From positions 64,001 to 128,000 of IMG/VR virus record IMGVR_UViG_3300027659_000009: a stretch of DNA of 64,000 bases, one strand, 5' to 3'. The DNA comes from a virus. Made by a program: the position numbers and the translations under genes. Below, piece by piece: positions 4,245-63,734 of the stretch; the first letter of the stretch is position 1; every line of letters starts with the position of its first letter. Below the pieces are notes generated by a model that was given only the letters and a program-made list of their open reading frames with translations, had not been told where the DNA came from and ran no database searches.

Positions 4245-4859
4245 ATGAAGATTAGGTTAACAGAAAGTCAATATAAAAGATTACTAAATGAAGATGATAA
4301 GTCATTTTTAGATGGCGATGTGGATTTTACTAACATAGATAACAAAGTTACACCTGTCATTGCAAAAATATTTATGGTTTTGAAAAATAAACACTTTGAA
4401 CCTAGTAGTGAATACCTCAAACTAAAAATACCTTTAGAATCTCCATACTTTGTAAAAATTGCTGAAGAAATAAGAACCTTAACGGGGTACGAAAATGATG
4501 AAGTTATGTTGTTAACGCACAACTATAGTACTATTTTAACGGAAGTTATTAAAAATTCGGAAGATTGGAAGTCTTTGGTAGGGTTACCTTTAGAATACTA
4601 TGGTAAGATGAATCTACCTACTTCAGTAAACTGGACTGGATACTTAAGTGGTTGGGGTGATGGTACAGTATCGGCTTATGCCACTAATTACGATGATTTC
4701 CAAAGAAAGATTGAGGACGGTGAAGTTGTGATAGATTATGATAATAGTGAAATAGAATATGACAGTGGTGATATACAATGGGAAAGAAATTACGACGCTG
4801 ACTACGATAATTTAAGTGATATAGAAATCGATTTAAATAATATTTCTTTTAACGGATAA
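4245..4859 (+). CDS. Class A leader protein with acidic C-terminal domain
   Basis: Starts MKIRLTESQYKRLLNE; paralog of 4861. Confidence 0.75.
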   Translation: MKIRLTESQYKRLLNEDDKSFLDGDVDFTNIDNKVTPVIAKIFMVLKNKHFEPSSEYLKLKIPLESPYFVKIAEEIRTLTGYENDEVMLLTHNYSTILTEVIKNSEDWKSLVGLPLEYYGKMNLPTSVNWTGYLSGWGDGTVSAYATNYDDFQRKIEDGEVVIDYDNSEIEYDSGDIQWERNYDADYDNLSDIEIDLNNISFNG

Positions 4860-4860
4860 T

Positions 4861-5433
4861 ATGAAAATAAAATTGACAGAAACTCAATACAATAGATTAC
4901 TTACTGAAGATAAAAACTACGGTAGGTTAGGTGATACCTTCCAACAATATATGGTTAGGGTATTTAAATTGTTAGGTAAGAAAAACTCATCTGATGAGGA
5001 AATAAAAAAAACAATTATAGAGGATTTAGGTTTGTCTGATCATGAAACTAAAATACTTTTATATAACTATAAAAATAAATTCTTACCTATACCTATTTCA
5101 GAGTATGATAGTTTAATAGGAGAACCAATAGATTTTGTTGGTACATATAAAATTGCAGTTGATATGCCAACAGTAGTATCTTGTAGAACATATATTGCTG
5201 GGTTTGTTGAAGTTACTGCCAATTCAAAAGAAGAAGCAATAAATAAGGTAGAAAATGGTATTTATGAAAGAATGTATTTAGATTCGAATTCTCTTGATTT
5301 TATGAATCCTGATTTAGATTATGATTTACCTTCAGACGCAGAAATAATGGAGGAGATGACATTAGATAATTTTAGAGATGTAGATTGGAGTGATGAAGAT
5401 GAGGTTGAGTCGAGAGTAAATTTAAAAATATGA
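4861..5433 (+). CDS. Class A leader protein, paralog of 4245
   Basis: Starts MKIKLTETQYNRLLTE; shares SL[IV]GxP[IL] motif with 4245. Confidence 0.75.
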   Translation: MKIKLTETQYNRLLTEDKNYGRLGDTFQQYMVRVFKLLGKKNSSDEEIKKTIIEDLGLSDHETKILLYNYKNKFLPIPISEYDSLIGEPIDFVGTYKIAVDMPTVVSCRTYIAGFVEVTANSKEEAINKVENGIYERMYLDSNSLDFMNPDLDYDLPSDAEIMEEMTLDNFRDVDWSDEDEVESRVNLKI

Positions 5434-5852
5434 AAATAATAATAACTGAAAGTCAATATAAAAAAGTTTTACTAAGAGAATTTGGTGAAACCGTTGATGA
5501 CCCTAAGAGATGGTATAAGATGATACTTAAGTGGGTAGATAATAATCCTAAGAGACTTAGTTTTGATAGTAAGGAATATGAAACTATTGCCTACGATGAT
5601 AAAGGTATATACTTAGGTTATTACGATAAAGAAGGTAACTACGGTTTTGTTGTTACAGAATATGGTATAGGTTTAGATGACTATACTGAAGAAATATTAG
5701 ATGAGGTAGATGCGGCTGGAGGAGATGCACCTGCTGGTGGTTCTTCTACTGTTTGGCCTCTTGCCGATGTTGGTAGAGGACCTGCGAACCCTATAGATAA
5801 CACACCGTGGGGTGTAAGTCCGACTAGAGGGCCCGCAAATCAATTAACGTAA
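5430..5852 (+). CDS. Class A leader protein with RGPAN repeat tail
   Basis: Starts MKIIITESQYKKVLLRE; tail has W..RGPANP / W..RGPANQ after an LDE site. Confidence 0.75.
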   Translation: MKIIITESQYKKVLLREFGETVDDPKRWYKMILKWVDNNPKRLSFDSKEYETIAYDDKGIYLGYYDKEGNYGFVVTEYGIGLDDYTEEILDEVDAAGGDAPAGGSSTVWPLADVGRGPANPIDNTPWGVSPTRGPANQLT

Positions 5853-5859
5853 TTAAACG

Positions 5860-5964
5860 TTATTTACCGTTATTATTTTGTGTGTTCGGTTGTGTAGTGG
5901 TTTGAGTACTACTTTGAGTCACTGGTTTCGCAACTGGTTTTTTGCTTTTACATCCGCATCCCAT
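5860..5964 (-). CDS. 34-aa microprotein MGCGCKSKKPVAKP... (not in ORF track)
   Basis: Translated by hand; minus-strand TATTTAT at 5998-6004. Confidence 0.7.
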   Translation of the reverse strand: MGCGCKSKKPVAKPVTQSSTQTTTQPNTQNNNGK

Positions 5965-6076: not shown

Positions 6077-6091
6077 TAGAAAATATAACAT

Positions 6092-10104: not shown

Positions 10105-10293
10105 TTAATTGTTTTGTTCTTTTTTTTTCTGATTATATATTGCCTTAATTTTCTCTTCTCTTTTTCTGACAGATTCTTTTAAATATTCCTCTCTGTCTTT
10201 ACATTCTTTCACAATTTTGGTTTTTACGAATTTACCTTTCAACTCCTTTAAACCTCTTTCGATGTTACCGTTTTTAATTTGTACTATTAACAT
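10105..10293 (-). CDS. rpsU: Ribosomal protein bS21, Bacteroidota type
   Basis: MLIV..K.GNIERGLK..K.KF.KT, RE.Y.K.SV.KR, KAIYNQ. Confidence 0.9.
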   Translation of the reverse strand: MLIVQIKNGNIERGLKELKGKFVKTKIVKECKDREEYLKESVRKREEKIKAIYNQKKKEQNN

Positions 10294-10367: not shown

Positions 10368-11369
10368 ATGAAATTTAGTGAAATATTAAGTGAGGAGTTA
10401 GATAGAAACGGAATTAGGAGAGTACTCAATACAATTCAGAGACGTTTTATAGATAAATTAGAAAAAAAACCTAATTCATTGTACCCGTTTGATGGATCTA
10501 TGGTAAAGGTAGATTCTGTATATATACCATTATTTGATTTTATCAAAGAATTCATAACGACAGAATATTCTGATATGATGAATATATTTTACACTTTCAT
10601 AGTAGAGTACAATACTGAAGGTAACTATGAAAATGTTGATTCATTAGTAAAAATAAGTGAAAGTGAAATGGAGTCTATGTTTTCCGATGAAGTTATTATC
10701 TTATCTAAATATTTTAGAACATCTCCATTTTTAATTAGTAAAGAATCTTCATTATATTATGGTTTGCCTATATATTATGTTTATGAAGAAGAAAATTTTT
10801 ATTGTATTGGTGACTATCGGAATATGGTTAATGCTACCAAAGAATATCTTCGTGATCGTTTTTCAGATAATACAGAAATTATTGCTAGTATAGGTACAGA
10901 AGAGTATATAAATTATTTGTTTATAGAAGACTACGACAAAGATAGATTGTCGGATGAGATGGCGACAGAGAGAGAATCTGAAATGTCTGATGATCAAATA
11001 TTGGGATACTTAAAAAGGTTTAGTAAACCACATATAGTCGATTTAGTTAATAGTTATGAAAATTCTTCGGAAGATGAAAAAGGTAAAATAATAGAAGAAT
11101 TGAGAAAATATAGTATTGAGTTTTTATCTAATCAATATTATGATGAATTAGATGATGTTTTTGAATATTTATTAGAAAGAGGATTCATTAACACAACTAA
11201 TGATGGTAAAATTGAAATAAATCATATACCATACTATATTAGGTTTGATTGGAATAGTTTTATAGATGATGAGTCAGGTAACGTACATTTTGAACAATTG
11301 AGTGTTTATGGGCAGGTGTATAGATACGGTGGAGATAATCCATATTATATGATTAAAATAGATTATTAA
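10368..11369 (+). CDS. Acidic protein with class C-like leader; paralog of 11370 and 15234
   Basis: Starts MKFSEILSEE; shared Y.IGD and C-terminal YY[MI] motifs; TATTTAT at 10339. Confidence 0.7.
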   Translation: MKFSEILSEELDRNGIRRVLNTIQRRFIDKLEKKPNSLYPFDGSMVKVDSVYIPLFDFIKEFITTEYSDMMNIFYTFIVEYNTEGNYENVDSLVKISESEMESMFSDEVIILSKYFRTSPFLISKESSLYYGLPIYYVYEEENFYCIGDYRNMVNATKEYLRDRFSDNTEIIASIGTEEYINYLFIEDYDKDRLSDEMATERESEMSDDQILGYLKRFSKPHIVDLVNSYENSSEDEKGKIIEELRKYSIEFLSNQYYDELDDVFEYLLERGFINTTNDGKIEINHIPYYIRFDWNSFIDDESGNVHFEQLSVYGQVYRYGGDNPYYMIKIDY

Positions 11370-12462: not shown

Positions 12463-13710
12463 ATGAAAATAAAATTAAACGTAAGTCAATATAAAAGGTT
12501 ACTAGAAATGAGACATGATGGTAAATCCACTGGTTTATTTGCTGATGAAGAACCTAAAAAGGAATTGGGTGATGAAGATAGTACAGAAGAAATCATCGAA
12601 GGTAAAAAAAAGAAAAAGAATACACTATGTGCTAGAGGTATAAGTGCGGCAAAATCTACATATGATGTTTATCCTTCTGCGTACGCTAACGGTTATGCAG
12701 TTCAAGTATGTAAAGGTAAGGTTAAAGGATTGGATGGAGAAAAAAGATGTAGTGGGAGTTACTGTAGAGGTAAAAGAAATGAAACATATAATTTTGATGA
12801 TATAGAAGTTGCGGAAAGATTAGATGAAGATTTGGCAGTTTGGTTTGGAACAAAGAAAAAACCAAAAGGTAGTAAACAACCTAATGGGCCTTGGGTTAAC
12901 ATCTGTAGAAAAAAAGAAGGTGGCGGACATCCTGAATGTGGTAGAGGTGATTCCGATAAAGGTGGTTATCCAGTTTGTAGGGCAAAAAGTGTTGCAGCGA
13001 ATATGAGTCAGGAGTCTAAAGATTCTGCGTGTAGACGTAAGAGAGAAAAAGAAAAAAATGATGGTAAATCAGGGAAAGGACAATCTCCAAGTCCTATTAA
13101 AGTTAAAAACTATAAATCTAAAAAGAATGAATCCTTAAACTACGATAGAATGTTAATTACTGAAAACAGAACTATTATTAGTGAAGGTTTAAGATATCAT
13201 ATAGATAATGAAATACCATTAACTGAATCAGTTTATAGATATGGTAGTGAATCTTTCTTTAACTTAATAAATGAAGTTAGAGAATTGTACACCAAAGGTA
13301 AAGTCGACTTATCATTTAGTGACGAAGAGATTATAAGAACCGACATTGGTAAACAAGGTATCTATGAGGGTAGAAAGGTTTGGTTGGACATACCAAATGA
13401 GTATATGGAAATAAATGAGGCAGAATATAAAGGTAAGACTGTTGAGTTGAGTAAACCTAAAAGAGGTGGAAGTAAAAAGTTTTATGTTTATGTGATGTGT
13501 AATGGTAAGGTTAAAAAAGTTTCCTTTGGCGCAAAATCTGGTGGGGCAAATTTGTCTGTAAAACTTAGAGACCCTAAGGCTAAAAAGGCGTTTTCTGATA
13601 GACACAATTGTCCGCAGAAAAATGATAAATGTAGTGCGGGTTATTGGAGTTGTAGATTACCTAGATATGCAAAACAATTAGGATTATCAGGTGGAGGTAC
13701 TTGGTGGTAA
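12463..13710 (+). CDS. Class A leader polyprotein of basic Cys-rich modules
   Basis: Modules YPSAYANG..C, WF..PWVNIC..CGR..YPVCR and KKVSFG..RHNC..YWSC separated by IIE/LDE/ITE/INE. Confidence 0.75.
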   Translation: MKIKLNVSQYKRLLEMRHDGKSTGLFADEEPKKELGDEDSTEEIIEGKKKKKNTLCARGISAAKSTYDVYPSAYANGYAVQVCKGKVKGLDGEKRCSGSYCRGKRNETYNFDDIEVAERLDEDLAVWFGTKKKPKGSKQPNGPWVNICRKKEGGGHPECGRGDSDKGGYPVCRAKSVAANMSQESKDSACRRKREKEKNDGKSGKGQSPSPIKVKNYKSKKNESLNYDRMLITENRTIISEGLRYHIDNEIPLTESVYRYGSESFFNLINEVRELYTKGKVDLSFSDEEIIRTDIGKQGIYEGRKVWLDIPNEYMEINEAEYKGKTVELSKPKRGGSKKFYVYVMCNGKVKKVSFGAKSGGANLSVKLRDPKAKKAFSDRHNCPQKNDKCSAGYWSCRLPRYAKQLGLSGGGTWW

Positions 13711-13733: not shown

Positions 13734-14165
13734 ATGAATAGAATAGTTAAATTAACAGAAGAAGACATTAAAAACATGGTTAAAAAAACTATGAATCAAA
13801 TTAATGTACAAGGTGATGAACATCACGATAGAGGAAATAGATATATGTTTTTCTCAAACCTACAACAAATGAGAAGACAATGTGATATATTATTAGATAT
13901 GGATCCAGAAATGGTTGAGGGTGTTTTAGAAAATGGACACGATTGGGCACAAGATCACATTGCAGAGGCAAAAAACAATATTGATCAAGTATTTGATTTC
14001 TTAATGAATGAAACTAAAAAGTATGGTATGGAGTTATCTATGAATATAGATGATAATGATATGATGAATGAAAAGTGGAGTAAAGAATATAAAAATTCCA
14101 TAGATTGTAATAATCCAAAAGGATTCTCTCAGAGAGCACATTGTCAAGGTCGTAAGAAAAGATAG
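13734..14165 (+). CDS. Class A leader protein with C-terminal KWS..IDC.NPKGFSQ.AHC module
   Basis: Starts MNRIVKLTEEDIK; MNE precedes the basic module. Confidence 0.75.
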   Translation: MNRIVKLTEEDIKNMVKKTMNQINVQGDEHHDRGNRYMFFSNLQQMRRQCDILLDMDPEMVEGVLENGHDWAQDHIAEAKNNIDQVFDFLMNETKKYGMELSMNIDDNDMMNEKWSKEYKNSIDCNNPKGFSQRAHCQGRKKR

Positions 14166-14166
14166 T

Positions 14167-14433
14167 ATGGATTTCCCGTTTGAAGAAAATAAAATAAATG
14201 GTTTTTATGTTCGTAAATTTTCTGATAATGTAGAGAATAGTGAATTGGTTTGGCATAGAGATAAAGAAGATAGGATTGTTGAGAGTGTTGGACATACAGA
14301 TTGGATGGTACAATTAGATAACCAACTACCTATCCCATTAACAGAAACAGTACTTATCCCAAAAGAAGTATATCACAGAGTAATTAAAGGTACTGGTGAA
14401 TTAACAGTTAAAATAAAAAAATTAAATGATTAA
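14167..14433 (+). CDS. Cupin-like protein
   Basis: WHRDKEDR and IPKEVYHRVIKG cupin motifs. Confidence 0.65.
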   Translation: MDFPFEENKINGFYVRKFSDNVENSELVWHRDKEDRIVESVGHTDWMVQLDNQLPIPLTETVLIPKEVYHRVIKGTGELTVKIKKLND

Positions 14434-15232
14434 GTTAACTCAAATATTAAATGAATCTGAGGGTAATTTATCTTATTTAGATAATAAGGTTTATAGAAAA
14501 TACTTAAACGTTCTTAATAAAAAATATCCTGAACTTCAAAATGAGGTAAGGCAGTATATTTACCCTAAGATAGAGTTGGGGCAACAATTTAATGAAAGCA
14601 AACCCTATAACAAAATGTTTAATTTTTTTGGTACGGGTTTTTTCAATTTAGATGTTGACGATAAATGTGATTTAATTTTTCTTTTTATTTTAAATTTAGA
14701 CGTTAAAGATTTTTTAACTGAGGAATTAAATGTTGCTAATGGGTTATATTTTGTGACAATGGAAATGGCTCAGGAGGGTTATGATTATTACAGTGAAACT
14801 GAAAATCTTACGTGTGACGAATGTAACGGAAGGGGATCTGAACCTGTAACATGTTCAGATTGTGATGGGAAAGGCAAAATTGAGGATTCTGATGGTGAAA
14901 CAGAATCGTGTTATGAATGTGATGGTAGTGGTGAGAAAGAGGAAGAGTGTGATTATTGTGGTGGTGATGGTGAATACGAAGAGGAAATTCATAGTGTAAC
15001 TAAGATAATACATAAATGGTTTATGGTTATGACAGAGAATCCTGACTTCCCACAAGTTGAAGATGGTTTTGATTTTATTGAAAAATACGCTGATAAAGTG
15101 TATGTAATTACGGCAATCAAAGGTGATGAAGAAGTTGCCAGAGATGAGTCAAATTTACCTGACGACTTAGAGATTACGGATTATGATGTTGATGAACCAA
15201 ATAAATTCGGAATAAGATATATTATGCTTTGA
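14426..15232 (+). CDS. Leader-bearing protein with DnaJ-type Zn finger
   Basis: Starts MIKLTQILNE; four CxxCxGxG repeats; no J-domain HPD. Confidence 0.75.
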   Translation: MIKLTQILNESEGNLSYLDNKVYRKYLNVLNKKYPELQNEVRQYIYPKIELGQQFNESKPYNKMFNFFGTGFFNLDVDDKCDLIFLFILNLDVKDFLTEELNVANGLYFVTMEMAQEGYDYYSETENLTCDECNGRGSEPVTCSDCDGKGKIEDSDGETESCYECDGSGEKEEECDYCGGDGEYEEEIHSVTKIIHKWFMVMTENPDFPQVEDGFDFIEKYADKVYVITAIKGDEEVARDESNLPDDLEITDYDVDEPNKFGIRYIML

Positions 15233-24435: not shown

Positions 24436-25227
24436 TTATAGTTCTTCTAAATTAATAATTTTAGAACCCAAACCCTTATTCTTTAACGTAATTTCTTCTT
24501 CGTGTGGGAATAGAATGTTATTAGATAACGTTTCTAAAACATCCATATTAGTTTTGTCGACATCTACAGTCACTAAAAATACTTTATCACCCATACAACT
24601 ACCTTGTATGGATCCTCTACCGTAGTGATTTTTAACTAAATTATTTTTGTTAAGTGAATAGTGTGAACCAACATATTCCTTATCTATGTTGACTATATCA
24701 TCACTACATACTATTCTATATAATCTTAGAGTTTTTGGTAAACTATTTAAATACGAAACTAAGTCAATTAAATCATCCTTTGCACTTTCTTCATCATAAC
24801 CCATATTTTCATAATCTGAAAGTAAATCATTAATCTCTGTTTTACTTAGTTTATATTTTTTACTATTATCTACATTTTCATTTATAGTATCATTTGGAAG
24901 TAATGGTTCGTAATATTTTTTATAGATTTCAGGCATCAAAAAATATAAAACAAATTCTAATGGTGAATCAGAATTTTCAGTAACTTTAAAATCGTCATAT
25001 GCTATACCAATTAATATAGAGAAAACACTTCCAATCTGCCCAAAATTGAGGTGTTTAAACTTTAATACGTTTTCTAAAAAATTATAATCAACCTTTAAGG
25101 GAGTCCTAACACATTTACTTTTAGTATTACATATGTTAATGAGATTATCCTCATCTAAATAGGTATATTTATTTACTATAAATTTACTTAGTTTTTTGTA
25201 GTATTTTGGATAGTTTTTTTCGTTCAT
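24436..25227 (-). CDS. Two-domain protein with C-terminal ADP-ribosyltransferase-like (R-S-E) domain
   Basis: After INE: LRLYR, GSHYS, EEEITL; minus-strand TATTTAT at 25256-25262. Confidence 0.55.
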   Translation of the reverse strand: MNEKNYPKYYKKLSKFIVNKYTYLDEDNLINICNTKSKCVRTPLKVDYNFLENVLKFKHLNFGQIGSVFSILIGIAYDDFKVTENSDSPLEFVLYFLMPEIYKKYYEPLLPNDTINENVDNSKKYKLSKTEINDLLSDYENMGYDEESAKDDLIDLVSYLNSLPKTLRLYRIVCSDDIVNIDKEYVGSHYSLNKNNLVKNHYGRGSIQGSCMGDKVFLVTVDVDKTNMDVLETLSNNILFPHEEEITLKNKGLGSKIINLEEL

Positions 25228-25292
25228 TTCGTTTAAAAATACTTTATATATTAAAATAAATATCTATAATTGTAATAAAATGGTGTATAAAT

Positions 25293-25706
25293 ATGGAGAT
25301 TCTTAACACTCACCCAATTAAAAAATCCGACTTAGGGTTTCACGGAAATTTATTTGGTGGGAAATTGTTGGCTTGGATAGATGCCTCTGCTGCAGGTTAT
25401 GCGATGCAACTATGTGATACACCCAGAATGGTTACCGTCAGTATTGATCAATGTAATTTTGAGAAACCAGTCAAAGAAAGTCAATTACTTAAGATATATG
25501 CTAAACCGACTAAAGTTGGTACTACATCGGTGACTATTTATATGGAGGCTAGGGCACATAATGTTTATACAGGTAAACAAGATTTAGTACTTAAAACTAA
25601 CATCACTTTTGTTCAAATAGACGAGGGTGCTAACCCAATACCTTTAGGTGAAAAGGCTAAAAAACGTATAAAAAATATGTTTGATACAGAAACATCTGAA
25701 AAGTAA
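25293..25706 (+). CDS. Acyl-CoA thioesterase (hotdog fold, YciA-like)
   Basis: HGNLFGGKLLAWID, MVTV, VGTTS, TFVQID. Confidence 0.9.
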   Translation: MEILNTHPIKKSDLGFHGNLFGGKLLAWIDASAAGYAMQLCDTPRMVTVSIDQCNFEKPVKESQLLKIYAKPTKVGTTSVTIYMEARAHNVYTGKQDLVLKTNITFVQIDEGANPIPLGEKAKKRIKNMFDTETSEK

Positions 25707-40972: not shown

Positions 40973-41021
40973 AGTAAGAGGTTTTTGTTTTTGTCGATAT
41001 TTATTAATAAATTAAAATATT

Positions 41022-41558: not shown

Positions 41559-41690
41559 TAATAAAACAGTATTTCAAATTAAATCAGTTTTTTTTTTGAA
41601 CATAGAAGTATTTATAATAAATTAAAATATTTGGGGGGTTTTTTGTTTTTTTTTATATATCGAAGTATTTATTAATAAACAAAAAATATT

Positions 41691-42056: not shown

Positions 42057-42076
42057 AAAAATACTTTATAGAATAA

Positions 42077-42111
42077 AAAACCCCATTCCTAATAAGAGTG
42101 GGGGGTTTTTT
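42077..42111 (+). terminator. Terminator hairpin
   Basis: CCCCATTC..GAGTGGGG plus T run; similar element at 57248-57278. Confidence 0.75.
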
Positions 42112-42135: not shown

Positions 42136-42771
42136 ATGAACATACAAGAAGAAATAAAAAGAATGAGACAAATGATGGGATTGAATGAACAAAAAGGTTC
42201 AATCACGTTAAGACTTGAAGGCCCTGTACAAACAGATTATACATATAATGGTCAAGAAGAACAAATATCATATCATATATATTCGGAGTTAAAAAAACTT
42301 AATGATGCAACGCAAATAACTAACGAAGATAAAACATATGCTGATTATGAAATGCAAGGTTATACAAATACTAAAAACGTTGAAGACACAATCAAAAAAG
42401 TAATACCATCGGTCACTTGTACAGTTAACGGTATGGATATAACGTGCACATTCACATTGAGTAAATCCTTAAACGAACAGGTTGGGTCAGAATATAATTT
42501 TAATACTGATGGAATGAAATCCGAAACACACGTATATACAATTACTGACATACAAGATTCTTCAAAAAAACAACGAGATCCTGCGGACCCTAAAAATAAT
42601 ACAAGAACAATACCTACAAAAAAAATAACATTGCAATGGACAAATCCACCACAAGGATTACCGTCTGAAACTATTGTAATCACTAAAGAGTGTGGAAACA
42701 ACACAATTACACCTCCGCGTGGGTATACATTAGACAATAAATTTATTGAATATGTAAACGGATTGTGTTAA
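42136..42771 (+). CDS. Class B leader plus two modules joined by LNEQ
   Basis: MNIQEEIKRMRQMMGLNEQ; internal SLNEQ. Confidence 0.75.
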   Translation: MNIQEEIKRMRQMMGLNEQKGSITLRLEGPVQTDYTYNGQEEQISYHIYSELKKLNDATQITNEDKTYADYEMQGYTNTKNVEDTIKKVIPSVTCTVNGMDITCTFTLSKSLNEQVGSEYNFNTDGMKSETHVYTITDIQDSSKKQRDPADPKNNTRTIPTKKITLQWTNPPQGLPSETIVITKECGNNTITPPRGYTLDNKFIEYVNGLC

Positions 42772-49790: not shown

Positions 49791-50081
49791 ATGAAAAAAA
49801 TTGTAAGATTAACTGAATCAGATTTACAAAGAATTGTAAAACGTGTGATTAAAGAAAACGAAGTAATGGGTAATTATGACGATTTTAACTATGATATAAA
49901 TCCTTTTGATTGTGGTGATAAGGTTGTATCTGGTACGGTAGACATTGATGGTGATGGGACTATTATGATAAATTATTGTAGTGGTAATGAGGGGGATTTA
50001 GAATACCTTAAAGAAAAAGGGCGTGAATTAGTCAAAAAAATGAGATCTGATTTTAATAAAATCGGAGGAAACCTATACTAA
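49791..50081 (+). CDS. Class A leader protein
   Basis: MKKIVRLTESDLQRIVKRVIKE. Confidence 0.8.
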   Translation: MKKIVRLTESDLQRIVKRVIKENEVMGNYDDFNYDINPFDCGDKVVSGTVDIDGDGTIMINYCSGNEGDLEYLKEKGRELVKKMRSDFNKIGGNLY

Positions 50082-50566
50082 TGAAAATAATTGTAACAGA
50101 AAATCAGGTTAATCGTTTATTCATTAATGAGAATGAGGAATTACTAAATAAGATTCTCGATAAGATTGGTGAATACGGTATGGAGTCGTTGACGGACAAC
50201 GAAAGAAAATTCTTAGACGATATGTCTAAAGATAAGGTTGATCCACATATCGAAAATTTACTCAGTATGGACTCAGGTTATGAGTTTGATGGTGAAGTGG
50301 ATGAAGTACCCGTAAAGTTCACCTATGAGTCCACAGAGGAGTGGGATGACAATCCTAAAGAATATAAACACATAGGTACTTTTAATTTTATGAATGGTGA
50401 TGACGAAATAGATTATTACGTTGAGATATATACTGACGCAGATTATAATTTTATGCATTTCGATATACACGATGGTAATGACTACGTTAATTTAAATGAG
50501 AATCTGGAAGATGAGTTAACACATTTCTTTTTGGATGTGAGTAATAAGTTGGCACAGTCGATGTAA
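50081..50566 (+). CDS. Class A leader plus DUF6576-like motif
   Basis: MKIIVTENQVNRLFINE; LNKILDKIGEYGMESLT.NERKFL. Confidence 0.7.
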   Translation: MKIIVTENQVNRLFINENEELLNKILDKIGEYGMESLTDNERKFLDDMSKDKVDPHIENLLSMDSGYEFDGEVDEVPVKFTYESTEEWDDNPKEYKHIGTFNFMNGDDEIDYYVEIYTDADYNFMHFDIHDGNDYVNLNENLEDELTHFFLDVSNKLAQSM

Positions 50567-51261: not shown

Positions 51262-51891
51262 ATGGGAAAAAATGATAAAAATTTTAATGAGACTATTGAA
51301 AGGATGAAATCTCTTTTTACGGAAGAGAGGATGTTTGGTAATTTAGTTGTGGAAGAAAAATCTTCTGAGGAAGATAAGGGTGAAGATGAGGGTAGTGAAG
51401 AGTCTACATCCACAAAACCTGAATGTTGTACAAGTTGTAACTGTTGGGAAGATTGTGGTGGATCATCACATTTCAACGGAACCAACGGTAGACCTAAAAT
51501 TGTTGTATCTAAGAGTAAAACTTATTTTTCGATATCATACGATGGTCCAAAATCAGGTTACTTAATTAAACACGCTAAATGTGGTTCTGGTGATTCTTTA
51601 CATCAGTTATGTAATGTTTTAACATATGAGATAAACAAATACCTTAAAGGTAAAAAATTAAAACCAAATATTAAAGATATTGAGTTTGAAAGGGAGGGTG
51701 GTGAGTTTACCATTGGAGTTCCTTTAACATCTTCTGAAAAAAGTTATAAGTTGGAAAGAAGAGGGGGAATGGGTCATGATCCTGGACCATCAACAGTTAA
51801 GGGAGTCTATGGTGATAGAAGTGGTTTTGAGGGACCAGTAAAACATTCTTCTGGTGGTATCACAGAATACTTTGTAACATTTTACGAATAA
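51262..51891 (+). CDS. Class B leader protein with Cys cluster
   Basis: NFNETIERMKSLFTEE; CCTSCNCWEDC. Confidence 0.75.
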   Translation: MGKNDKNFNETIERMKSLFTEERMFGNLVVEEKSSEEDKGEDEGSEESTSTKPECCTSCNCWEDCGGSSHFNGTNGRPKIVVSKSKTYFSISYDGPKSGYLIKHAKCGSGDSLHQLCNVLTYEINKYLKGKKLKPNIKDIEFEREGGEFTIGVPLTSSEKSYKLERRGGMGHDPGPSTVKGVYGDRSGFEGPVKHSSGGITEYFVTFYE

Positions 51892-51918: not shown

Positions 51919-52254
51919 ATGGATAAATTGACAAATAAAGACATTAAAAGGATTGTTGAAAACTTAATGAAGGAAGGTATGGATAATGATGAGTCTGCCC
52001 ACCTATATAGAAGAATACAAAGAAATGGGGAAGAGATAGACTCAATTATAACGAAGTTTAGAGGTGCAAAAAATGAGTTAGACGATAAAATTAAAACACA
52101 TATTAGAAGAGATACTGGTGGCACTATTTTTGATCCAAATCAAAGAACACCGAATGATGTTTTAGATAGTGTCGCAAATTTAAATAGAGTTTTAAATAAT
52201 TTAGAAACTTTATTAAACGATTACAAAAATATAATAAGAAAATCAATCTACTAG
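51919..52254 (+). CDS. Class A-like leader plus coiled-coil protein
   Basis: MDKLTNKDIKRIVENLMKE. Confidence 0.7.
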   Translation: MDKLTNKDIKRIVENLMKEGMDNDESAHLYRRIQRNGEEIDSIITKFRGAKNELDDKIKTHIRRDTGGTIFDPNQRTPNDVLDSVANLNRVLNNLETLLNDYKNIIRKSIY

Positions 52255-53502: not shown

Positions 53503-53550
53503 AAATAAAAAAATAAAACTTTTTAAAGAAAGAATATATTTATATATAAA

Positions 53551-53590
53551 ATAATAAAATAATAAAATAATAAAATAATAAAATAATAAA
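53551..53590 (+). repeat. 8-bp tandem repeat (ATAATAAA)x5 in a 5' UTR
   Basis: Lies between TATTTAT (53537) and the ATG at 53602. Confidence 0.85.
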
Positions 53591-53601
53591 ATAAAAAAAA
53601 A

Positions 53602-54189
53602 ATGAAAAAAATAATTAGACTAAATGAATCAGATTTACGAAGAATTGTAAATAGAGTAGTTAGAGAAACTACCAATACTAAGAGAGGACGTAGATTATAT
53701 GAAGGATTAGAGGGAGATGAGACTCTGACTCTTCACTATATTACTATCAATGAGGGGATGAGAGGTAAATGGGAAGTATCTGATAATACTTTATATGTAA
53801 CTTTTGATGAAGCCGAAAGAAGTATTGATTCTATGGGTAACCCTGCCTCAAGTATAACAAACAATAACTATGGTAATACTGATATGATGTGGGAAGTCCT
53901 GTGTTCATCAGAAGATGTCAAAAGAACAAGATCGTGGGCGGACGATATTGAGGAATTATATCCAAATGGAAGGGGAGTGGATGAGTCTAGACGTATTAGA
54001 AATAAACGTAGACTATATGAAACATTAGATCAGGAACGATATTCGTTGGGGGATGTTAGAGAAATATTTAATGGTTCGAAAGGTAATTATGAAGTTAAAC
54101 ACAATAGTTTATTACTTACTGAGAATAGTAATCGTAATAATGTGATACAGGTTTTTTGTGATGAAGTTGACCCTGGAAGTTATCGGTAA
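53602..54189 (+). CDS. Class A leader plus two related modules
   Basis: MKKIIRLNESDLRRIVNRVVRE; RRLYE occurs twice, each followed by a G.[KR]G.[WY]EV..N.L module. Confidence 0.8.
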   Translation: MKKIIRLNESDLRRIVNRVVRETTNTKRGRRLYEGLEGDETLTLHYITINEGMRGKWEVSDNTLYVTFDEAERSIDSMGNPASSITNNNYGNTDMMWEVLCSSEDVKRTRSWADDIEELYPNGRGVDESRRIRNKRRLYETLDQERYSLGDVREIFNGSKGNYEVKHNSLLLTENSNRNNVIQVFCDEVDPGSYR

Positions 54190-54242: not shown

Positions 54243-54629
54243 ATGAAAAAGATTATAAAATTAACAGAATCAGATTTACAAAGAATTGTAAATAGAGTAA
54301 TTAGAGAAAGTATGATAAGTGAATTGGGTGGTATGGATGACGGACACCCGTTTTCTGGTAATTTGAACTTTAATGATTTATCATCTGATGACAGAAAAAA
54401 AGTTAATAAATATTACCGATTTGATGATGAGGAAGTAGATGATTCTTTTTCTGAATTAGATAATGATGAAGATGAAAATGAAGATGAGGGATTCCCTGAA
54501 TGGGAAAAATTAAAAAAGTATATGGATGATCGAGATAAAAAACAAATTGATGATCGAAATGAAAAAATGGACAATTTGATGCGTCAAATAAAAAAAGATA
54601 ATAGTGAACGTCCATTTAATAGAGATTAA
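54243..54629 (+). CDS. Class A leader protein, acidic
   Basis: MKKIIKLTESDLQRIVNRVIRE. Confidence 0.8.
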   Translation: MKKIIKLTESDLQRIVNRVIRESMISELGGMDDGHPFSGNLNFNDLSSDDRKKVNKYYRFDDEEVDDSFSELDNDEDENEDEGFPEWEKLKKYMDDRDKKQIDDRNEKMDNLMRQIKKDNSERPFNRD

Positions 54630-54633: not shown

Positions 54634-54897
54634 ATGAAAAATTTAATCAGAAGAATATTAAAAGAAGAAGTCGAAGAGACATCTGGGGAAAAACACCCTA
54701 ACGCAAAAGAAATAAAAAAAGGGAATTTAACTGGTTGTTATACAGTTAATTCTGGTGATCAGGCATTGGCGATTGCAAAGGCATTTGGTATTACTTTGGA
54801 TGATATTAAATCTCTTAATGGGTTAAGAAACGCCAACTCAATACAACCAGAACAAAAGTTGAGGGTTAAAAATAGAGTAAAATTTGATGGTTGTTAA
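54634..54897 (+). CDS. Class C leader plus LysM domain
   Basis: MKNLIRRILKEE; YTVNSGD..IAKAFGIT...LN.L...I.P.Q.L.V. Confidence 0.85.
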   Translation: MKNLIRRILKEEVEETSGEKHPNAKEIKKGNLTGCYTVNSGDQALAIAKAFGITLDDIKSLNGLRNANSIQPEQKLRVKNRVKFDGC

Positions 54898-55498: not shown

Positions 55499-55795
55499 AT
55501 GAAAAACTTAATTAAGAGGATTTTAAAAGAGGAATACAATAAAAAGGAACATGACATTTGTAACATGATGACTGTCGACACTTATGAGGAGGGTATAAAA
55601 CTTTTAGAAAAATACTTAGGTACTATAAAAGAAAATCCTGTTGATTGGGGTAAAATAAAACAACCTTTAAAAATGTGGAAAGAGTCGATTATTGAGATTC
55701 GAAAGGAGATTGATAGGGACGGTATGTCTGGAGACTCTGAGGTTGACGAATCTGATACGTGGTGGGCAACTATACAAGGTTCTTTTTGTAAATAA
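55499..55795 (+). CDS. Class C leader protein
   Basis: MKNLIKRILKEE. Confidence 0.75.
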   Translation: MKNLIKRILKEEYNKKEHDICNMMTVDTYEEGIKLLEKYLGTIKENPVDWGKIKQPLKMWKESIIEIRKEIDRDGMSGDSEVDESDTWWATIQGSFCK

Positions 55796-56272: not shown

Positions 56273-56662
56273 ATGAGAAGAATCACAAGATTAAATGAAA
56301 ACGATTTGAATCGTATCGTTAGAAGAGTTATTAGGGAAGAAGAAGATAGGTCTATGACAACACAAATGTTTAACACTGCGAAACAAAAGTATGACAACGG
56401 ACAAAGAAACCCTAGTCTAGAGAAAAAAATTAAAAACTGTATTACCAAAAACAGGTTGAAAAGTTTGTTCTGGTTAACAACCGCTCGAGGGGCTTATATA
56501 TTAGGACTTATCGCAGTGGGTTTTTTAATTCCAGGCCTGGATGGGGTAGAAGTAGCGGCGCTTGCAGCAATATATATAATCTATGTAATTGCCTCAGAAA
56601 GAAACATAATAGAAAACAATATTTCCAACGATGTTAAAAAATTATGTGATTGTCTTTTTTAA
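56273..56662 (+). CDS. Class A leader plus hydrophobic hairpin
   Basis: MRRITRLNENDLNRIVRRVIRE; two TM-like segments around IPGLD. Confidence 0.75.
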   Translation: MRRITRLNENDLNRIVRRVIREEEDRSMTTQMFNTAKQKYDNGQRNPSLEKKIKNCITKNRLKSLFWLTTARGAYILGLIAVGFLIPGLDGVEVAALAAIYIIYVIASERNIIENNISNDVKKLCDCLF

Positions 56663-56703: not shown

Positions 56704-56925
56704 ATGAGAAGAATAGAAAGATTAAGAGAAAACGATTTGGATCGTATCGTTAGAAGAGTTATTAGAGAAGATAATAAACAAACCCCAAAGGTTGGTGATA
56801 CTGATACTTTAAAAAAACTACAAACCTATTTAAAGGAACTTGTTGATGAAAGCGTTATAGACAATGATGTAAAGTCCCATATAATGTTTTTAGTAAAAAA
56901 GTTAGTTAAGGAAATAAACAAATAA
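56704..56925 (+). CDS. Class A leader protein
   Basis: MRRIERLRENDLDRIVRRVIRE. Confidence 0.75.
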   Translation: MRRIERLRENDLDRIVRRVIREDNKQTPKVGDTDTLKKLQTYLKELVDESVIDNDVKSHIMFLVKKLVKEINK

Positions 56926-56929: not shown

Positions 56930-57229
56930 ATGAGAAAAGTTATAAGATTAACAGAATCAGATTTAACTCGTATTGTTAAACAATTGTTAAATGAACAAAA
57001 TATTAAGGATATTCGTAAGGGTAAAGGAACCGATATTGCAGGTGGAGATAATAATGAGTATGGTGCCGAGTATGGTAAATGTACAAAATTTTATTCAAGA
57101 AAAAAAGGAACTACAAAATGGGTTTTAGGTGATTATTATAATCAATACGCGATATGGAAATATTACTTCAGTGATAAAGTCAGTGATAAAGGATGGTCAA
57201 AAAGTTGTGCCGATCAAGGTATAAAGTAA
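56930..57229 (+). CDS. Class A leader protein
   Basis: MRKVIRLTESDLTRIVKQLLNE. Confidence 0.75.
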   Translation: MRKVIRLTESDLTRIVKQLLNEQNIKDIRKGKGTDIAGGDNNEYGAEYGKCTKFYSRKKGTTKWVLGDYYNQYAIWKYYFSDKVSDKGWSKSCADQGIK

Positions 57230-57587: not shown

Positions 57588-58373
57588 ATGAAAAAAAGAG
57601 TGTTTAGACTTACTGAGAGTCAAATAGAACGTTTAAGTAAAAGATTTTTAAATGAATCGTATGGTTTAATAACTTATCAAGACACAATATGTGAAATTGT
57701 TTGTAAGGAAAAAGTTGCCAAATACGGATCCAGAGGAGACGTTGTTCAAATGATACAACACTTATTATATGCTAATAAATATAATACAAAATACTCAGGT
57801 GGTGGAATGAAAGGTGATTACTGTTACAGTGATTTTAGAGAATGTGACGGCATATTTAAAGATCAAACCAAAATTGCGGTGGAGGAGTTCCAAAGATTCG
57901 TACGTATAAACGTTGACGGTGTAGTTGGTTATGAAACATGGAAGGCTATGTGTAGTAAGTTAACGTTTACCAAATCATTACCAAAAAATAAATTTTGTGT
58001 GGAATGTTTTTGTGAAGATTTTCAGGATGATTTTAAAGACGATTTTAAAGATATAGATGTTTTTGATCCAATTAAGGGAATTGACTCTATTGATTGTGAG
58101 AAATTAAAAAAATGTGTTAAAGATCATATCTTAATACCAGGACCAAATTATTTAGGTTTTGAAAAATGTATCGGTGGAGAGGTAAATGGAAAAAGTAGTT
58201 GGTCTTGTATGGTGTGTAAAGATACATTTAAATCGGGTTACATTGATAAACAACCTAAGATTATTAATGATCCAAACTATAAAAATACTCCCGCATATTT
58301 AGAATTTTTACGAAAATCGGAATTAGGTGATTGGTGTCTGTCTCACTGTGACGGTTTTGAACAATTAATGTAA
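57588..58373 (+). CDS. Class A leader plus peptidoglycan-binding domain, Cys-rich
   Basis: RVFRLTESQIERL..FLNE; GSRGDVV..IQ..L, DGIF...T..AV..FQ, VDGVVG..TW. Confidence 0.8.
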   Translation: MKKRVFRLTESQIERLSKRFLNESYGLITYQDTICEIVCKEKVAKYGSRGDVVQMIQHLLYANKYNTKYSGGGMKGDYCYSDFRECDGIFKDQTKIAVEEFQRFVRINVDGVVGYETWKAMCSKLTFTKSLPKNKFCVECFCEDFQDDFKDDFKDIDVFDPIKGIDSIDCEKLKKCVKDHILIPGPNYLGFEKCIGGEVNGKSSWSCMVCKDTFKSGYIDKQPKIINDPNYKNTPAYLEFLRKSELGDWCLSHCDGFEQLM

Positions 58374-58627
58374 TGAAAAAAGTAATTATAACTGAGAAAC
58401 AATTAATAGGTATAATAGAAGAGTCTTATTATGAAGAGTCATATTATGATTCTCAAAAATTATATAGTAAACAGTATATAGAGGAAATAACCAGAACTGC
58501 ACCTTTTAATATTAAAAACATCGCAAGAGGATTAGAGGTTCTTGGGTGTACAGATAGTAATGGTAATACTATACAGTGTGTAAGAATTCCTGAAGTATTA
58601 TTTGTTTACATCAGTGGTAGATATTAA
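58373..58627 (+). CDS. Class A leader protein
   Basis: MKKVIITEKQL..IIEE. Confidence 0.7.
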   Translation: MKKVIITEKQLIGIIEESYYEESYYDSQKLYSKQYIEEITRTAPFNIKNIARGLEVLGCTDSNGNTIQCVRIPEVLFVYISGRY

Positions 58628-59347: not shown

Positions 59348-59785
59348 ATGAAAATTAGAAAAAACGGAAAAGTTATAGAACTAACTGAAAATGAACTTAA
59401 AAAGATTATAGATAAATCCCCTAATAATGTAGAGGAGGGTATCATCTCAACATTTAAAGGGCTGGGTGGTATGTTAAAAGGTACTGGTTTTAGTTATACT
59501 AAGTACGCATACGAAATGAGTGGAAAACTTAAAGAACTTAATGAGAATTTAGAGGAGGCAGTCGTTGAACTTGAAAGAATTTTAGATAAATCCAACCAAT
59601 CTAAAATGTCGAATATATCTTTTGATAGGTTGACTACACATATAACTGACGCATTAGATGCCTACAGAATGACTATTGGTACTAACGAAATAATCATTCA
59701 GGATTTAGAAAATTCTGTTTCTAATAATAGAAATCAAGGTAGGTCACAACAAAACCCTAATTCACAGTTTAATAATACCCCTTAA
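59348..59785 (+). CDS. Class A leader plus coiled-coil protein
   Basis: KVIELTENELKKII; VEEG. Confidence 0.75.
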   Translation: MKIRKNGKVIELTENELKKIIDKSPNNVEEGIISTFKGLGGMLKGTGFSYTKYAYEMSGKLKELNENLEEAVVELERILDKSNQSKMSNISFDRLTTHITDALDAYRMTIGTNEIIIQDLENSVSNNRNQGRSQQNPNSQFNNTP

Positions 59786-61599: not shown

Positions 61600-61622
61600 G
61601 GTTAAAGTTATATTTATAATAT

Positions 61623-62264
61623 ATGAGAACAAAAGATAAGGTAAGTAATATTAGAAAAGTTAATCTTCTTATGGAAATGAGAGATAGATTATTAAACGAA
61701 ACCCCTCCGTATCATCTTAATATGGATGAACCAGTTACCGCACCAAAGGCACAAAACGCATATTTAGAGGGTGACTCACCAAAATTGATAGGTAAAGAAG
61801 TTTGGTTTCACACAAATAGACACAATATTAAACACAATAAAAACGGTGCGTTTGGTGTTTATGGGAGAACTAAAAGGGGTAGAAAAAATTCTACACCTGG
61901 GATTATCGGTTATACCAATGATATACTATTAGGTGGTGATATAAACTTTGATATAAGTCTTGGGTACCATAACATTATGAGAACAACAAAAGACGCTGGA
62001 GAGATGTCTAAAAGAGAACAAGTAGTTGGTGTAGGTGGTGTTGTTCAAGATTTACCAGATGATCCAATTAACTTAAAAAATATGGCAGAAGAGATAAAAT
62101 ATAATCCATTTTTATCTGATTATTTCTACACTGCCGATGGTGAAAATAAAGTATTAGGGGCAGAATTTGTTTACGCAGAATACCGTCCAGATGGTAGTTA
62201 TTCATTACACGCGATAAACCCATTATTAGAACCATTTAAAATGGGTGAATATAATCCTTTTTAA
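61623..62264 (+). CDS. Leader-like protein of unknown function
   Basis: K..NIRKVNLLME.R..LLNE; IKYNPF..YF motif. Confidence 0.7.
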   Translation: MRTKDKVSNIRKVNLLMEMRDRLLNETPPYHLNMDEPVTAPKAQNAYLEGDSPKLIGKEVWFHTNRHNIKHNKNGAFGVYGRTKRGRKNSTPGIIGYTNDILLGGDINFDISLGYHNIMRTTKDAGEMSKREQVVGVGGVVQDLPDDPINLKNMAEEIKYNPFLSDYFYTADGENKVLGAEFVYAEYRPDGSYSLHAINPLLEPFKMGEYNPF

Positions 62265-62265
62265 T

Positions 62266-62697
62266 ATGACAAAATTTCAGGAGAGAATAATAAATTTGTT
62301 AAATAAGGATTATAATAAAAATACATTAGGTCGTAATTTTAATTTCAATTCTTTTGGGGATATTATGTTAATCGCTAGAAATGATATTTATAATGATTTA
62401 ATTAATCATTATGGTGTCGATGTAAATAGTCCAGAATATACTTTTATAGTGAGAAACTGGTGTAGACAAAATTATGGTGATGGTAAATATGCGATAGCAG
62501 GGGACACTATACGACTAATAAATATGCCCGATGATCCAAACCCTATTGAACCAGGTACAGTTGGTGTTGTTAAAGAAGTATCTTCCAATTCCGCGTTTAA
62601 TGAAGATTATTTAACTGTAAATTGGGAAAATGGGAGAAGTTTAAAGTTGATTGTTGGTTTGGATAAGTTTGAAAGAATTAAAGATAGTGTAAAATGA
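62266..62697 (+). CDS. Helical N-module plus DUF4314-like domain
   Basis: GDTIRLINMPDDPNPI.PGT.G.V, VNWENGRSL.LI..D. Confidence 0.75.
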   Translation: MTKFQERIINLLNKDYNKNTLGRNFNFNSFGDIMLIARNDIYNDLINHYGVDVNSPEYTFIVRNWCRQNYGDGKYAIAGDTIRLINMPDDPNPIEPGTVGVVKEVSSNSAFNEDYLTVNWENGRSLKLIVGLDKFERIKDSVK

Positions 62698-63734
62698 AAA
62701 AACTAATTAAACATATATTAAAAGAAGAGGTTGACAATAAGGTTAAGAAATATCTAGATTATATTGTAAATTCTTTGTTAAAAGACGTTTATCTAAAGGA
62801 AAATTCAGGTGAAACTAGATTTGGTAGTGCAGGTGAACTTACGGATATGAATCTATTCGGAGATGAGATATATGATTTAGTAAATAATCCTTTAGAATTT
62901 AGAAAATTGGGTTGGGATTTTTTAGTAGATGAAGAAGATCCTAACGATATGGGGTATTTTTTTAGGACAAATAAACCTGATTATGATTATGACTATGATG
63001 AATTTTATTATGAGGTTATATATGATTGGTTACACGATTTAACTGACAAAGGGTTATTAATTTATCATGAGGATTCTGGTGAACACGGTGAATGGGTAGT
63101 ACCAACAAAGGATTTAATAATTAAATCAAATTCAAATTTATCTTTTAATATACCATTATATTATGATATAAATAAACAAAGTTATTATATACCTGATATT
63201 GCAAGTACAAGTTTAAGAGTTCAAATAATGACTGATATAGATAAAGTGTACAGTATTAGTGATACATCTGAAATGGAATATGTTATAGATACTTTTTTAG
63301 AATTATTACCACAAAAATTAACTAATCTGGGTATTAATTTTTACATTAAAAATGATAGAATATTTAGTAAAGTTAGAAATAATATAAACGAAGGTATTGT
63401 CGAAGATTTTATTGAGTTTGGTAAAAGTGAATTGTCATTAGGTGACGATTTCAAAGTAAATTTAACAGACAATACTGATAGTGTTCAGACATTAGGTAAT
63501 TATGATATTGACGGTAAAGTGATTACCGTAGTTAAAAAGAATAGGGCAATACCAGATATAATTAGATCCATCGCACACGAAATGGTACACCATAATCAAA
63601 ATGTTAGAGGCGATCTGAGAGGAAGAGGAGACGAAGGTGAGGAGGGTTCTCCTTGGGAAGATGAGGCTAATTCGAGGGCAGGTAGATTAGTTAGAAGATT
63701 TGGGGATAAGAATCCTGAAATTTATGACTTATAG
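62694..63734 (+). CDS. Class C leader polyprotein with C-terminal zincin
   Basis: MKKLIKHILKEE; after INE: TLGNY, IAHEMVHH, EDEAN. Confidence 0.75.
   Translation: MKKLIKHILKEEVDNKVKKYLDYIVNSLLKDVYLKENSGETRFGSAGELTDMNLFGDEIYDLVNNPLEFRKLGWDFLVDEEDPNDMGYFFRTNKPDYDYDYDEFYYEVIYDWLHDLTDKGLLIYHEDSGEHGEWVVPTKDLIIKSNSNLSFNIPLYYDINKQSYYIPDIASTSLRVQIMTDIDKVYSISDTSEMEYVIDTFLELLPQKLTNLGINFYIKNDRIFSKVRNNINEGIVEDFIEFGKSELSLGDDFKVNLTDNTDSVQTLGNYDIDGKVITVVKKNRAIPDIIRSIAHEMVHHNQNVRGDLRGRGDEGEEGSPWEDEANSRAGRLVRRFGDKNPEIYDL

Follow-up and report, generated by a model that had tools for sequence, protein, structure and literature searches.

Why should dozens of otherwise unrelated genes of one virus begin with nearly the same short peptide? 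The question is raised by a 64,000-nucleotide stretch of viral DNA (in the following the window; bases 64,001-128,000 of the 166,352-bp IMG/VR virus record IMGVR_UViG_3300027659_000009), in which 36 genes starting between window positions 4245 and 62694 carry N-terminal leaders of 12-25 residues that end in a hydrophobic residue, any residue and Glu. On the basis of the sequence comparisons described here we favour, with moderate confidence, the interpretation that the three classes of leader are removable propeptides which address proteins to the capsid in a T4-type head assembly, and that a T4-like system has here been expanded to about one fifth of the genes. The record has a G+C content of about 30% and a completeness rating of 51%, which implies a genome of roughly 330 kb. 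Gene calling with a simple longest-ATG script yielded 223 open reading frames (ORFs) on the contig, nearly all of them on the + strand.

Leader classes and the level of their conservation

Class A leaders are either long (MKKIIRLTESDLxRIVKRVIxE) or short (MKIxLTESQYKRLLxE); class B reads MxNLxEEIxRIxxMMGxxxE and class C MKxLIKxILKEE, and B/C hybrids such as MNLQESIRRILRE are found as well. All 36 class A, B or C starts listed in an earlier sequence-only reading of the window indeed translate to the leaders described there. When hidden Markov models of the three classes were searched against the 2,019 open segments in the six frames of the entire contig (cut-off 8 bits), 43 of the 45 matches lay 0-6 residues from an initiating Met, 42 of them on the + strand, and the other two were marginal (8.5 bits); the scores are circular for the seed genes, for which the absence of matches elsewhere in the contig serves as control. 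A further 8-11 leader genes lie on the contig outside the window, and leader carriers amount to 44-47 of the 223 ORFs (ca. 20%). The leader has the features of a basic amphipathic helix with a hydrophobic stripe. It does not resemble a Sec or Tat signal peptide, as leaders are charged throughout and offer no uncharged core of at least 10 residues after a basic N-region; true signal peptides sit on other genes of the contig, which carry no leader.

The same peptide is widespread beyond this record. A back-translated pattern for MKKIIRLTESDL matched at least 120 IMG/VR contigs, compared with a chance expectation below one (a rough estimate), and in the flanks of these contigs the class A profile found 247 N-terminal matches and a single internal one. 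Among 1.84 billion cluster representatives (protein clusters at 50% identity) 7,512 proteins matched the class A profile at E ≤0.001, all of them metagenomic, and the best alignment begins within the first 12 residues for 147 of the 150 top-ranking proteins. The Met-anchored matches on the contig, in the IMG/VR flanks and among the cluster representatives, together with pattern matches far above chance, rule out a chance or compositional artefact. Neither Pfam nor PHROGs contains a model covering the leader. The sequence-only reading had known of no functional description, and a full-text literature search for the motif strings likewise gave no relevant paper; the publications on Jug phages and bS21 phages do not mention such leaders.

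The boundary between leader and cargo was analysed on class A leaders of other IMG/VR contigs (182 after dereplication). Similarity had been claimed to stop at the last Glu, and this is borne out by the information content: the Glu itself reaches 3.4 bits, the next two positions 1.0 and 0.5, and background follows. Strong conservation is seen in those columns which the search pattern did not constrain (R, I, V, K, R, V, I, x, E). Such conservation might in principle reside in the nucleic acid, the peptide being a by-product of a recombination cassette or of a translation-initiation region, perhaps for a bS21-modified ribosome. Two leader pairs nearly identical in DNA (41022/41691 and 56273/56704), the shuffling of cargo modules among genomes, and a phage that encodes bS21 in Bacteroidota, where initiation is not led by Shine-Dalgarno sequences (PMC9723584), would be in line with this scenario. 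However, synonymous codon identity at shared residues of this genome's leaders is 0.63 compared with 0.50 expected from codon usage, and the excess stems from the two pairs just mentioned, which are recent duplicates. Synonymous sites thus vary almost as codon usage predicts while the residues are near-invariant over the 182 leaders, which is evidence against a DNA cassette or mRNA element; in-frame internal copies also retain the peptide sequence, and the other five frames are without matches. A DNA cassette or translation-initiation element is rejected on the synonymous-site variation, and we assign to it only a very small residual probability. As judged from these codons, conservation of the leader acts on the peptide and not on the DNA.

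Internal copies of the leader provide further constraints. About one third of the top 150 class A profile matches possess a second, internal leader without Met between two cargo modules in a leader-cargo-leader-cargo arrangement (e.g. P0036-P0038, P0051, P0055, P0056 and P0071 from other metagenomes), and the internal leaders of such fusion proteins are otherwise fully conserved, as in ...NKKVVRLTESDLNRLVKRIIRE/Q... (a slash denotes the candidate cleavage position here and below). Stop-codon read-through as the origin of two-leader proteins is excluded, the internal copies being in frame and devoid of Met. Their intactness implies that the role of the leader needs no free N-terminus, which weakens the initiation-region idea as well as the possibility of a degron or anti-degron that would set the lifetime of late accessory proteins, be read by host or phage proteases and have no link to the capsid. 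The N-terminal location in nearly all cases and a gene for a Clp-type unfoldase on the contig would agree with a lifetime signal of this kind. Yet it could not act from the conserved Met-less positions inside many fusions, and conservation extends over 22 residues with an invariant Leu-x-Glu, whereas known short N-degrons need fewer conserved residues. The match to capsid and scaffold motifs described below would, moreover, be left unexplained by a degron, and we regard it as improbable. The internal copies would fit a linker equipped with cut sites.

Comparison of orthologous cargo proteins indicates that leaders of different classes replace each other. The cargo of the class B gene at window position 37190 (...MMGVINE/GLHDTSW...) is 73.5% identical over 117 residues to that of a class A protein of the related contig L053 (...RVLLEEEMEE/GLHDTSW...), and the homology begins immediately after the leader Glu. 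Pterin-4a-carbinolamine dehydratase (PCD) is preceded by a class B leader in this phage and by a short class A leader in L053, and the C-terminal module of the protein encoded at 12463 is found elsewhere as a single-module protein behind a class C, B or A leader. From these alignments the leader classes are modular and interchangeable on orthologous cargo.

Head module, protease-type sites and promoter context

A T4-type head module is located at 154-163 kb of the contig. It comprises the large terminase gene (TerL), the gp20 portal gene (PF07230, 2e-76 in Pfam), two small genes between portal and protease, a prohead protease of the gp21 type (Peptidase_S77, PF03420, 9e-25), a scaffold-like protein and a gp23-type major capsid protein (PF07068, 3e-72). 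The protease (genome positions 159214-159903), whose presence the idea of a packaging tag predicts, aligns with T4 gp21 (PDB 5JBL) at 9e-19; both catalytic residues, His (ADHP) and Ser (SSRG), are retained. The scaffold-like protein is acidic, consists of 477 residues, lies between the protease and capsid genes and is conserved in at least 12 relatives; its label rests on position, composition and conservation. The nearest capsid proteins of cultured phages, those of Flavobacterium phage immuto and Microcystis phage Mel-JY01, are about 41% identical over roughly half of the length.

The [LI]-x-E motif of the leaders had also been sought in the capsid and scaffold proteins, and it is present in both and conserved in relatives. 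The capsid protein reads ...ASALLNE/STSADSSGSFETVVFPIVRRVF, i.e. ASALLNE/STSAD...FPIVRRVF, and the site appears as L[IL]NE/[AS] in 16 freshwater relatives and as LIYE/A in five relatives of the 412-kb type. Its position is that which we take to be the propeptide cut site of T4 gp23, and by this likeness the capsid and scaffold proteins would be cut at these motifs. In the scaffold-like protein PINE/S and NLNE/S are found at the C-terminus, conserved as [IFVM][NT]E/S and LIE/[ST]. The leaders terminate in VINE/S, VIKE/Q, VITE/S, MGLNE/Q or ILKE/E, and a second [LI]-x-E is located near the start of classes A (LTE/S) and B (LNE/E). Within the first 30 residues the motif occurs in 42 of 44 leader proteins (mean 1.68) compared with 75 of 179 others (mean 0.54). 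This likeness of the leader ends to the capsid and scaffold motifs is suggestive of a link to the head protease. A comparison across the clade for matching shifts of the capsid cut motif and the leader ends revealed [LI]-x-E in both sub-clades and thus offered no contrast. A predicted complex between the leader (alignment A3) and the scaffold-like protein (alignment A2) received a score of 0.00, which is below the mark and speaks neither for nor against binding.

The S77 protease was found in 27 of 49 leader-bearing contigs; among those with a completeness of 90% or more (257-413 kb) it is present in 11 of 12. Five contigs lacking S77 were checked, including the near-complete exception, and gp23 is absent from them as well, so that these records lack the head module and do not count as exceptions. 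This half-genome has 15 class A leaders of the long form, compared with 7-12 per genome in complete relatives. Among cultured phages, tblastn of the 23-residue consensus leader gave no match and tblastn of two leader proteins nothing useful, the best hit being a ParB annotation at E 0.8 for the 37190 cargo; megablast of 20 kb of the window against cultured phages was equally without a match. The class A profile revealed no leader in the phages immuto and Mel-JY01 and merely two weak matches in the 484-kb uncultured phage LR756508.

The genomic context also connects leader genes with head genes. The motif ATATTTAT[AT] has 57 of its 91 forward copies in intergenic DNA, which makes up 7.4% of the contig; it peaks 20-30 nucleotides before start codons, with A at -1 in 40 of 47 sites, and appears promoter-like. 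It heads portal, protease, scaffold and tail genes as well as most leader units, and is found 20-30 nucleotides upstream of the leader genes 41022, 41691, 49791, 55499 and 59348. Each + strand gene was assigned to the nearest upstream promoter type, either this late motif or a host-type one (TAnnTTTG or TTGAC-N16-19-TAnAAT), a classification that rests on short motifs. By this assignment 38 leader genes are late, none host-type and four unassigned, compared with 60 late and 57 host-type genes without leader (Fisher p = 1e-9); at the level of units the numbers are 19 and 0 versus 30 and 28 (p = 5e-5). The four unassigned genes belong to a single cluster, and gtatatttatat is found ahead of the true start of this cluster. 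The sequence-only reading had stated that genes behind host-type promoters lack the leader, in agreement with 0 of 43 + strand leader genes in host-type units, and had regarded a leader common on early genes as an argument against packaging; as judged by promoter type, early-type genes do not carry it.

The main rival, to which the stability signal and the nucleic-acid element are inferior in likelihood, assumes an uncleaved docking or oligomerisation helix for a late partner other than the capsid, such as a ClpC/ClpB-like unfoldase, a membrane or another assembly, [LI]-x-E then being a mere reflection of an amphipathic helix rich in K, E, I and L. Such a binding module would be expected to be basic and amphipathic with a hydrophobic stripe and to remain intact at internal positions of fusions, as observed. 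The contig does encode a ClpC/ClpB-like double AAA+ protein with Clp_N, [LI]xE is frequent in the proteome, and among the cargo, which is not basic, there is a metabolic enzyme. A docking helix does not, however, account for three unrelated classes which all end in [LI]-x-E exactly where conservation stops, for their interchange on the same cargo, for the same type of tetrapeptide at the capsid and scaffold sites, or for the head-gene promoter motif common to the leader genes; besides the head module, the results single out no partner. We therefore consider this rival unlikely, though clearly less so than a degron, and leave the remaining probability to explanations outside those discussed here.

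Cargo, packaging scenario and known systems

Pfam scans of 30 leader proteins left the cargo mostly without a family match. Most of the functions proposed in the sequence-only reading were not recovered; Pfam did support Pterin_4a (33558), LysM (54634) and PG_binding_1 (57588, weakly in 31911), but flavodoxin-like, ART-like and pre-toxin-like families were absent from these scans, and the ParB-like assignment of the 37190 cargo is weakly supported by the hit at E 0.8 mentioned above. HExxH motifs are present in the leader proteins 31911, 36138 and 62694. The cell-wall cargo (PG_binding_1, LysM, glucosaminidase) has no signal peptides, which is consistent with virion-delivered proteins; glucosaminidase-region modules in the contigs L066 and L089 bear a Sec-type signal peptide instead of the leader. 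Outside the window, at genome positions 39087-42107, a class A protein of 1006 residues contains a glucosaminidase domain (PF01832) and is a candidate virion-associated cell-wall hydrolase.

In analogy to T4, we propose the following scenario. Late in infection, dozens of non-core, fast-changing proteins would be made, each of which might dock onto the scaffolding core of the prohead by its N-terminal amphipathic helix of 12-25 residues. The gp21-type serine protease would then cut after the Glu of [LI]-x-E. Candidate sites terminate the leaders (VI[KN]E/, MGxxxE/, ILKE/), and class A and B leaders have another one close to their start (LTE/S, LNE/E). The mature cargo would be retained in the head and released along with the DNA when the next cell is infected. 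For the attachment to the core, the removal of the leader, the persistence of cargo in the virion and its ejection, this scenario goes beyond what the sequences show. The proposal of the sequence-only reading, a portable tag by which the phage loads a large and variable arsenal of proteins into the head, is supported in part: those of its predictions that were examined at the sequence level all came out as expected (an S77 protease, [LI]-x-E in the capsid protein and the scaffold, leader genes behind the promoter motif used by head genes, and modular interchange), although much of the supposed arsenal is without annotation and the cargo is not basic as are T4 internal proteins.

Several observations weigh against packaging. 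With a leader on about 20% of the contig genes, the proportion greatly exceeds that in T4; there are tiny cargos (ca. 30 residues) and metabolic ones, PCD in particular being an odd protein to package; and the cargo has a median pI of 5.9, unlike the basic T4 internal proteins. The [LI]xE motif is frequent in this K/E/I/L-rich proteome (0.017 per residue), such that the site match is weak alone, and the independent observations are the three leader classes and not the 44 genes. In addition, the cargo frequently begins with Q, N, E or D behind the final Glu of the leader, compared with S, A or T at the capsid and scaffold sites. The link between leader and S77 could be explained by plain shared ancestry, the leader being limited to one clade of T4-like jumbo phages, and no cultured relative with the leader is present in the collections searched. 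The late timing of the leader genes is read from a shared motif, which also heads non-structural units, one of them holding a sigma-70-type factor.

The basic principle is established for T4, where propeptides of 10-19 residues give core affinity and are removed by gp21 through cuts after Glu (PMC9026906). In the T4 IPIII leader, targeting resides in the N-terminal part and processing occurs at residues 8 and 10 (PMC9026906), and leaders resembling this capsid-targeting sequence (CTS) are found on variable proteins of other T-even phages (PMC9026906, PMC5694885). The T4 principle, including its variation among T-even phages, is thus already known (PMC9026906), and the leader system would be an extension of it. 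As on IPI, IPII, IPIII and Alt of T4, short N-terminal propeptides ending in hydrophobic-x-Glu would be placed on unrelated, non-essential and variable proteins, and the genome likewise has homologs of gp20, gp21 and gp23 and a gp22-like protein. The resemblance between T4 CTS and the leaders presumably lies in the pattern alone (MK..., hydrophobic-x-Glu). Class C (MKNLIKRILKE/E, 11-12 residues) comes closest, having the length and layout of the 10-residue T4 CTS (PMC9026906). Unlike the T4 CTS there are three classes, two of which are about twice as long (18-25 residues) and carry two candidate sites, and they sit on about one fifth of the contig genes instead of a handful, on cargo that is not basic. 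The hosts are Bacteroidota, and the genomes have 257-413 kb.

Phages related to phiKZ (phiKZ, 201phi2-1, SPN3US) contain about 50 head proteins and a gp21-related protease cutting after Glu; their propeptides carry several sites, and paralogs with conserved N-termini occur (PMC5694885). The leader system shares with them the gp21-type protease and candidate Glu sites, of which classes A and B have two. In contrast to the phiKZ/SPN3US motif, in which the second residue before the Glu is S, A or G (PMC5694885), I, L or V is found at this position in leaders, capsid and scaffold. The phiKZ-like propeptides often exceed 100 residues, and no single portable leader is spread there over dozens of unrelated proteins; the phiKZ-like phages also have no clear gp22-type scaffold, whereas a scaffold-like protein is present in this phage. 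A further parallel is offered by the MuF-domain polymorphic toxins of prophages and by polyvalent proteins that enter the cell with phage DNA, in which a conserved N-terminal part is thought to address variable C-terminal effectors to the capsid and modules are shuffled (PMC11699363, PMC7824862). MuF, however, folds into a domain of about 300 residues and is not removed from the protein, in contrast to a helix of 12-25 residues with protease-type sites, and Pfam scans of the 30 leader proteins (E up to 0.01-0.1) revealed no MuF domain.

More tentatively, and with slightly less than even confidence, we extend the scenario to a large clade of T4-related jumbo phages of Bacteroidota (257-413 kb; from freshwater and apparently gut or rumen), in which a three-class, interchangeable and protease-removable address code would load a very large and fast-changing protein set into the capsid for delivery with the DNA. 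Class A by itself would account for 7,500 clusters or more, and the code as a whole for as much as one fifth of a genome's genes. If so, the leaders would mark the proteins which an abundant uncultured phage clade carries into the cell before any gene expression, among them probably cell-wall enzymes as well as factors for counter-defence and host takeover. A defined functional class would emerge from thousands of metagenomic proteins now called 'hypothetical', and the injected proteome of uncultured phages would be readable straight from sequence. The CTS principle of T4 would hold not just for a few proteins but for one fifth of a genome, and the leader would constitute a ready-made portable packaging tag for large capsids. 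Even if the capsid interpretation is wrong, an N-terminal motif of 22 residues on more than 7,500 protein clusters, undescribed in Pfam, PHROGs and the searched literature, calls for an explanation.

Leader genes of the window and further observations

The 36 listed leader genes of the window all lie on the + strand and are given with window coordinates; bits denote the profile score in the contig scan. Three short class A genes follow each other at 4245-4859 (MKIRLTESQYKRLLNE/D, 26.6 bits), 4861-5433 (MKIKLTETQYNRLLTE/D, 22.4 bits) and 5430-5852 (MKIIITESQYKKVL, 22.0 bits). The multi-module protein with a short class A leader at 12463-13710 contains an internalised leader-like stretch near residues 225-241 and a C-terminal GYWSCR module. 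This Cys-rich module of about 100 residues (GYW[AS]CR) corresponds to phrog_7595, of unknown function, and is also found in ORFs of L098, L044 and L053. Downstream, a class A gene is located at 13734-14165 (MNRIVKLTEEDIKNMVKK, 25.1 bits). Two short leader-like starts missing from the list of the sequence-only reading, at 14426-15232 and 10368-11369, read MIKLTQILNE/SEGN and MKFSEILSEE and score below the profile thresholds.

The next group begins with a class B gene behind a late motif (27019-27498, 21.7 bits), followed by a class C gene (27514-28044, MKDIIKKILKE/E, 21.7 bits), a class B gene (28046-28864, MENLNEEISRIKSIMGVITE/S, 26.5 bits) and a class B variant (30631-31350, 19.4 bits), the leader of which fits the start at 30631 and not the upstream ATG at 30556. 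A class C gene at 31508-31891 (...IVKKILKE/D, 20.9 bits) precedes the class A gene at 31911-33323 (RVINE/S, 28.3 bits), whose cargo shows the weak PG_binding_1 match and the motif HEIQH. PCD is encoded at 33558-33962 behind a class B variant (12.9 bits) and terminates in the tail ELTE/RCWRGYTQKGMKTMFGKRYPNCVKK. The last 26 residues of this protein represent a second portable module, a C-terminal tail of the form [LIM]-T-E/xCWxGYTQKGMKTMFGKRYPNCVKK, which is attached to unrelated proteins, also in L053, L104 and L106, and is preceded by a protease-type site. A B/C hybrid gene lies at 33964-34485 (MNIQESIRRILRE/E, 21.2 bits).

At 36138-37193 a class B gene (22.0 bits) with the motif HEFDH has the late motif gtatatttatat directly upstream, within a longer ORF from 36120. 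It is followed by the class B gene at 37190-37630 (MMGVINE/G, 29.6 bits), the cargo of which contains DGHHR (ParB-like) and whose L053 ortholog has class A, by a class B gene at 37599-38753 (MMGINE/V, 23.8 bits), by the B/C hybrid at 38764-39204 (MNLQESIRRILRE/D, 23.6 bits) and by a short class A gene behind a late motif at 39331-40911 (21.5 bits). The class A genes at 41022-41558 (RVIRE/Q, late motif upstream, 28.9 bits) and 41691-42056 (29.8 bits) have near-identical leader DNA, which by its likeness points to recent duplication or conversion. A class B gene at 42136-42771 (MMGLNE/Q, 24.1 bits) is again preceded by the late motif.

Class A is represented further at 49791-50081 (RVIKE/N, 30.7 bits) and, in the short form, at 50081-50566 (19.7 bits), where the cargo matches DUF6576. 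A class B variant (51262-51891, 18.4 bits) and a weak class A variant (51919-52254, MDKLTNKDIKRIVENLMKE/G, 11.5 bits) precede the class A gene at 53602-54189 (RVVRE/T, 26.3 bits). Tandem units resembling AATAAAAT lie at about 53540-53601, between the late motif of this gene and its start, which they directly precede. For the class A gene at 54243-54629 (RVIRE/S, 32.1 bits) the homologs are all metagenomic and named 'hypothetical'. Class C leaders are attached to the LysM domain at 54634-54897 (27.2 bits) and to the gene at 55499-55795 (late motif upstream, 27.4 bits). Further class A genes are found at 56273-56662 (25.2 bits), 56704-56925 (73 residues, 22.9 bits), 56930-57229 (QLLNE/Q, 29.0 bits) and 57588-58373 (RFLNE/S on the PG_binding_1 protein, 24.8 bits), together with a short variant at 58373-58627 (21.9 bits) and a variant at 59348-59785 in which the leader is offset by 6 residues (24.5 bits). 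The leader gene at 62694-63734 belongs to class C (21.1 bits) and carries the motif HEMVH.

A few other genes of the contig are worth recording. A bS21 ribosomal protein gene (PF01165, 3e-12) is located in the window at 10105-10293 on the - strand and does not adjoin the head module; in encoding bS21 the phage resembles the freshwater Bacteroidota 'bS21 phages', which reach 331 kb (PMC9723584). A sigma-70 family factor with regions 1.2, 2 and 4 is encoded at genome positions 24758-25555 (+) in a unit headed by ATATTTAT[AT], and is a candidate reader of this phage-specific promoter. The ClpB/ClpC-like unfoldase (genome 139121-141586, -; 821 residues) contains Clp_N, two AAA+ domains, a UVR motif and ClpB_D2-small, and might act as a handler of leader-tagged proteins. 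Finally, four reverse-strand genes with classical signal peptides (MKNLILLFVLVMLSF...) at genome positions 30992-31447, 128371-128865, 135264-135953 and 138564-139064 carry no leader, and at least three of them have a host-type TAnnTTTG upstream; they are likely secreted or lipoprotein morons.

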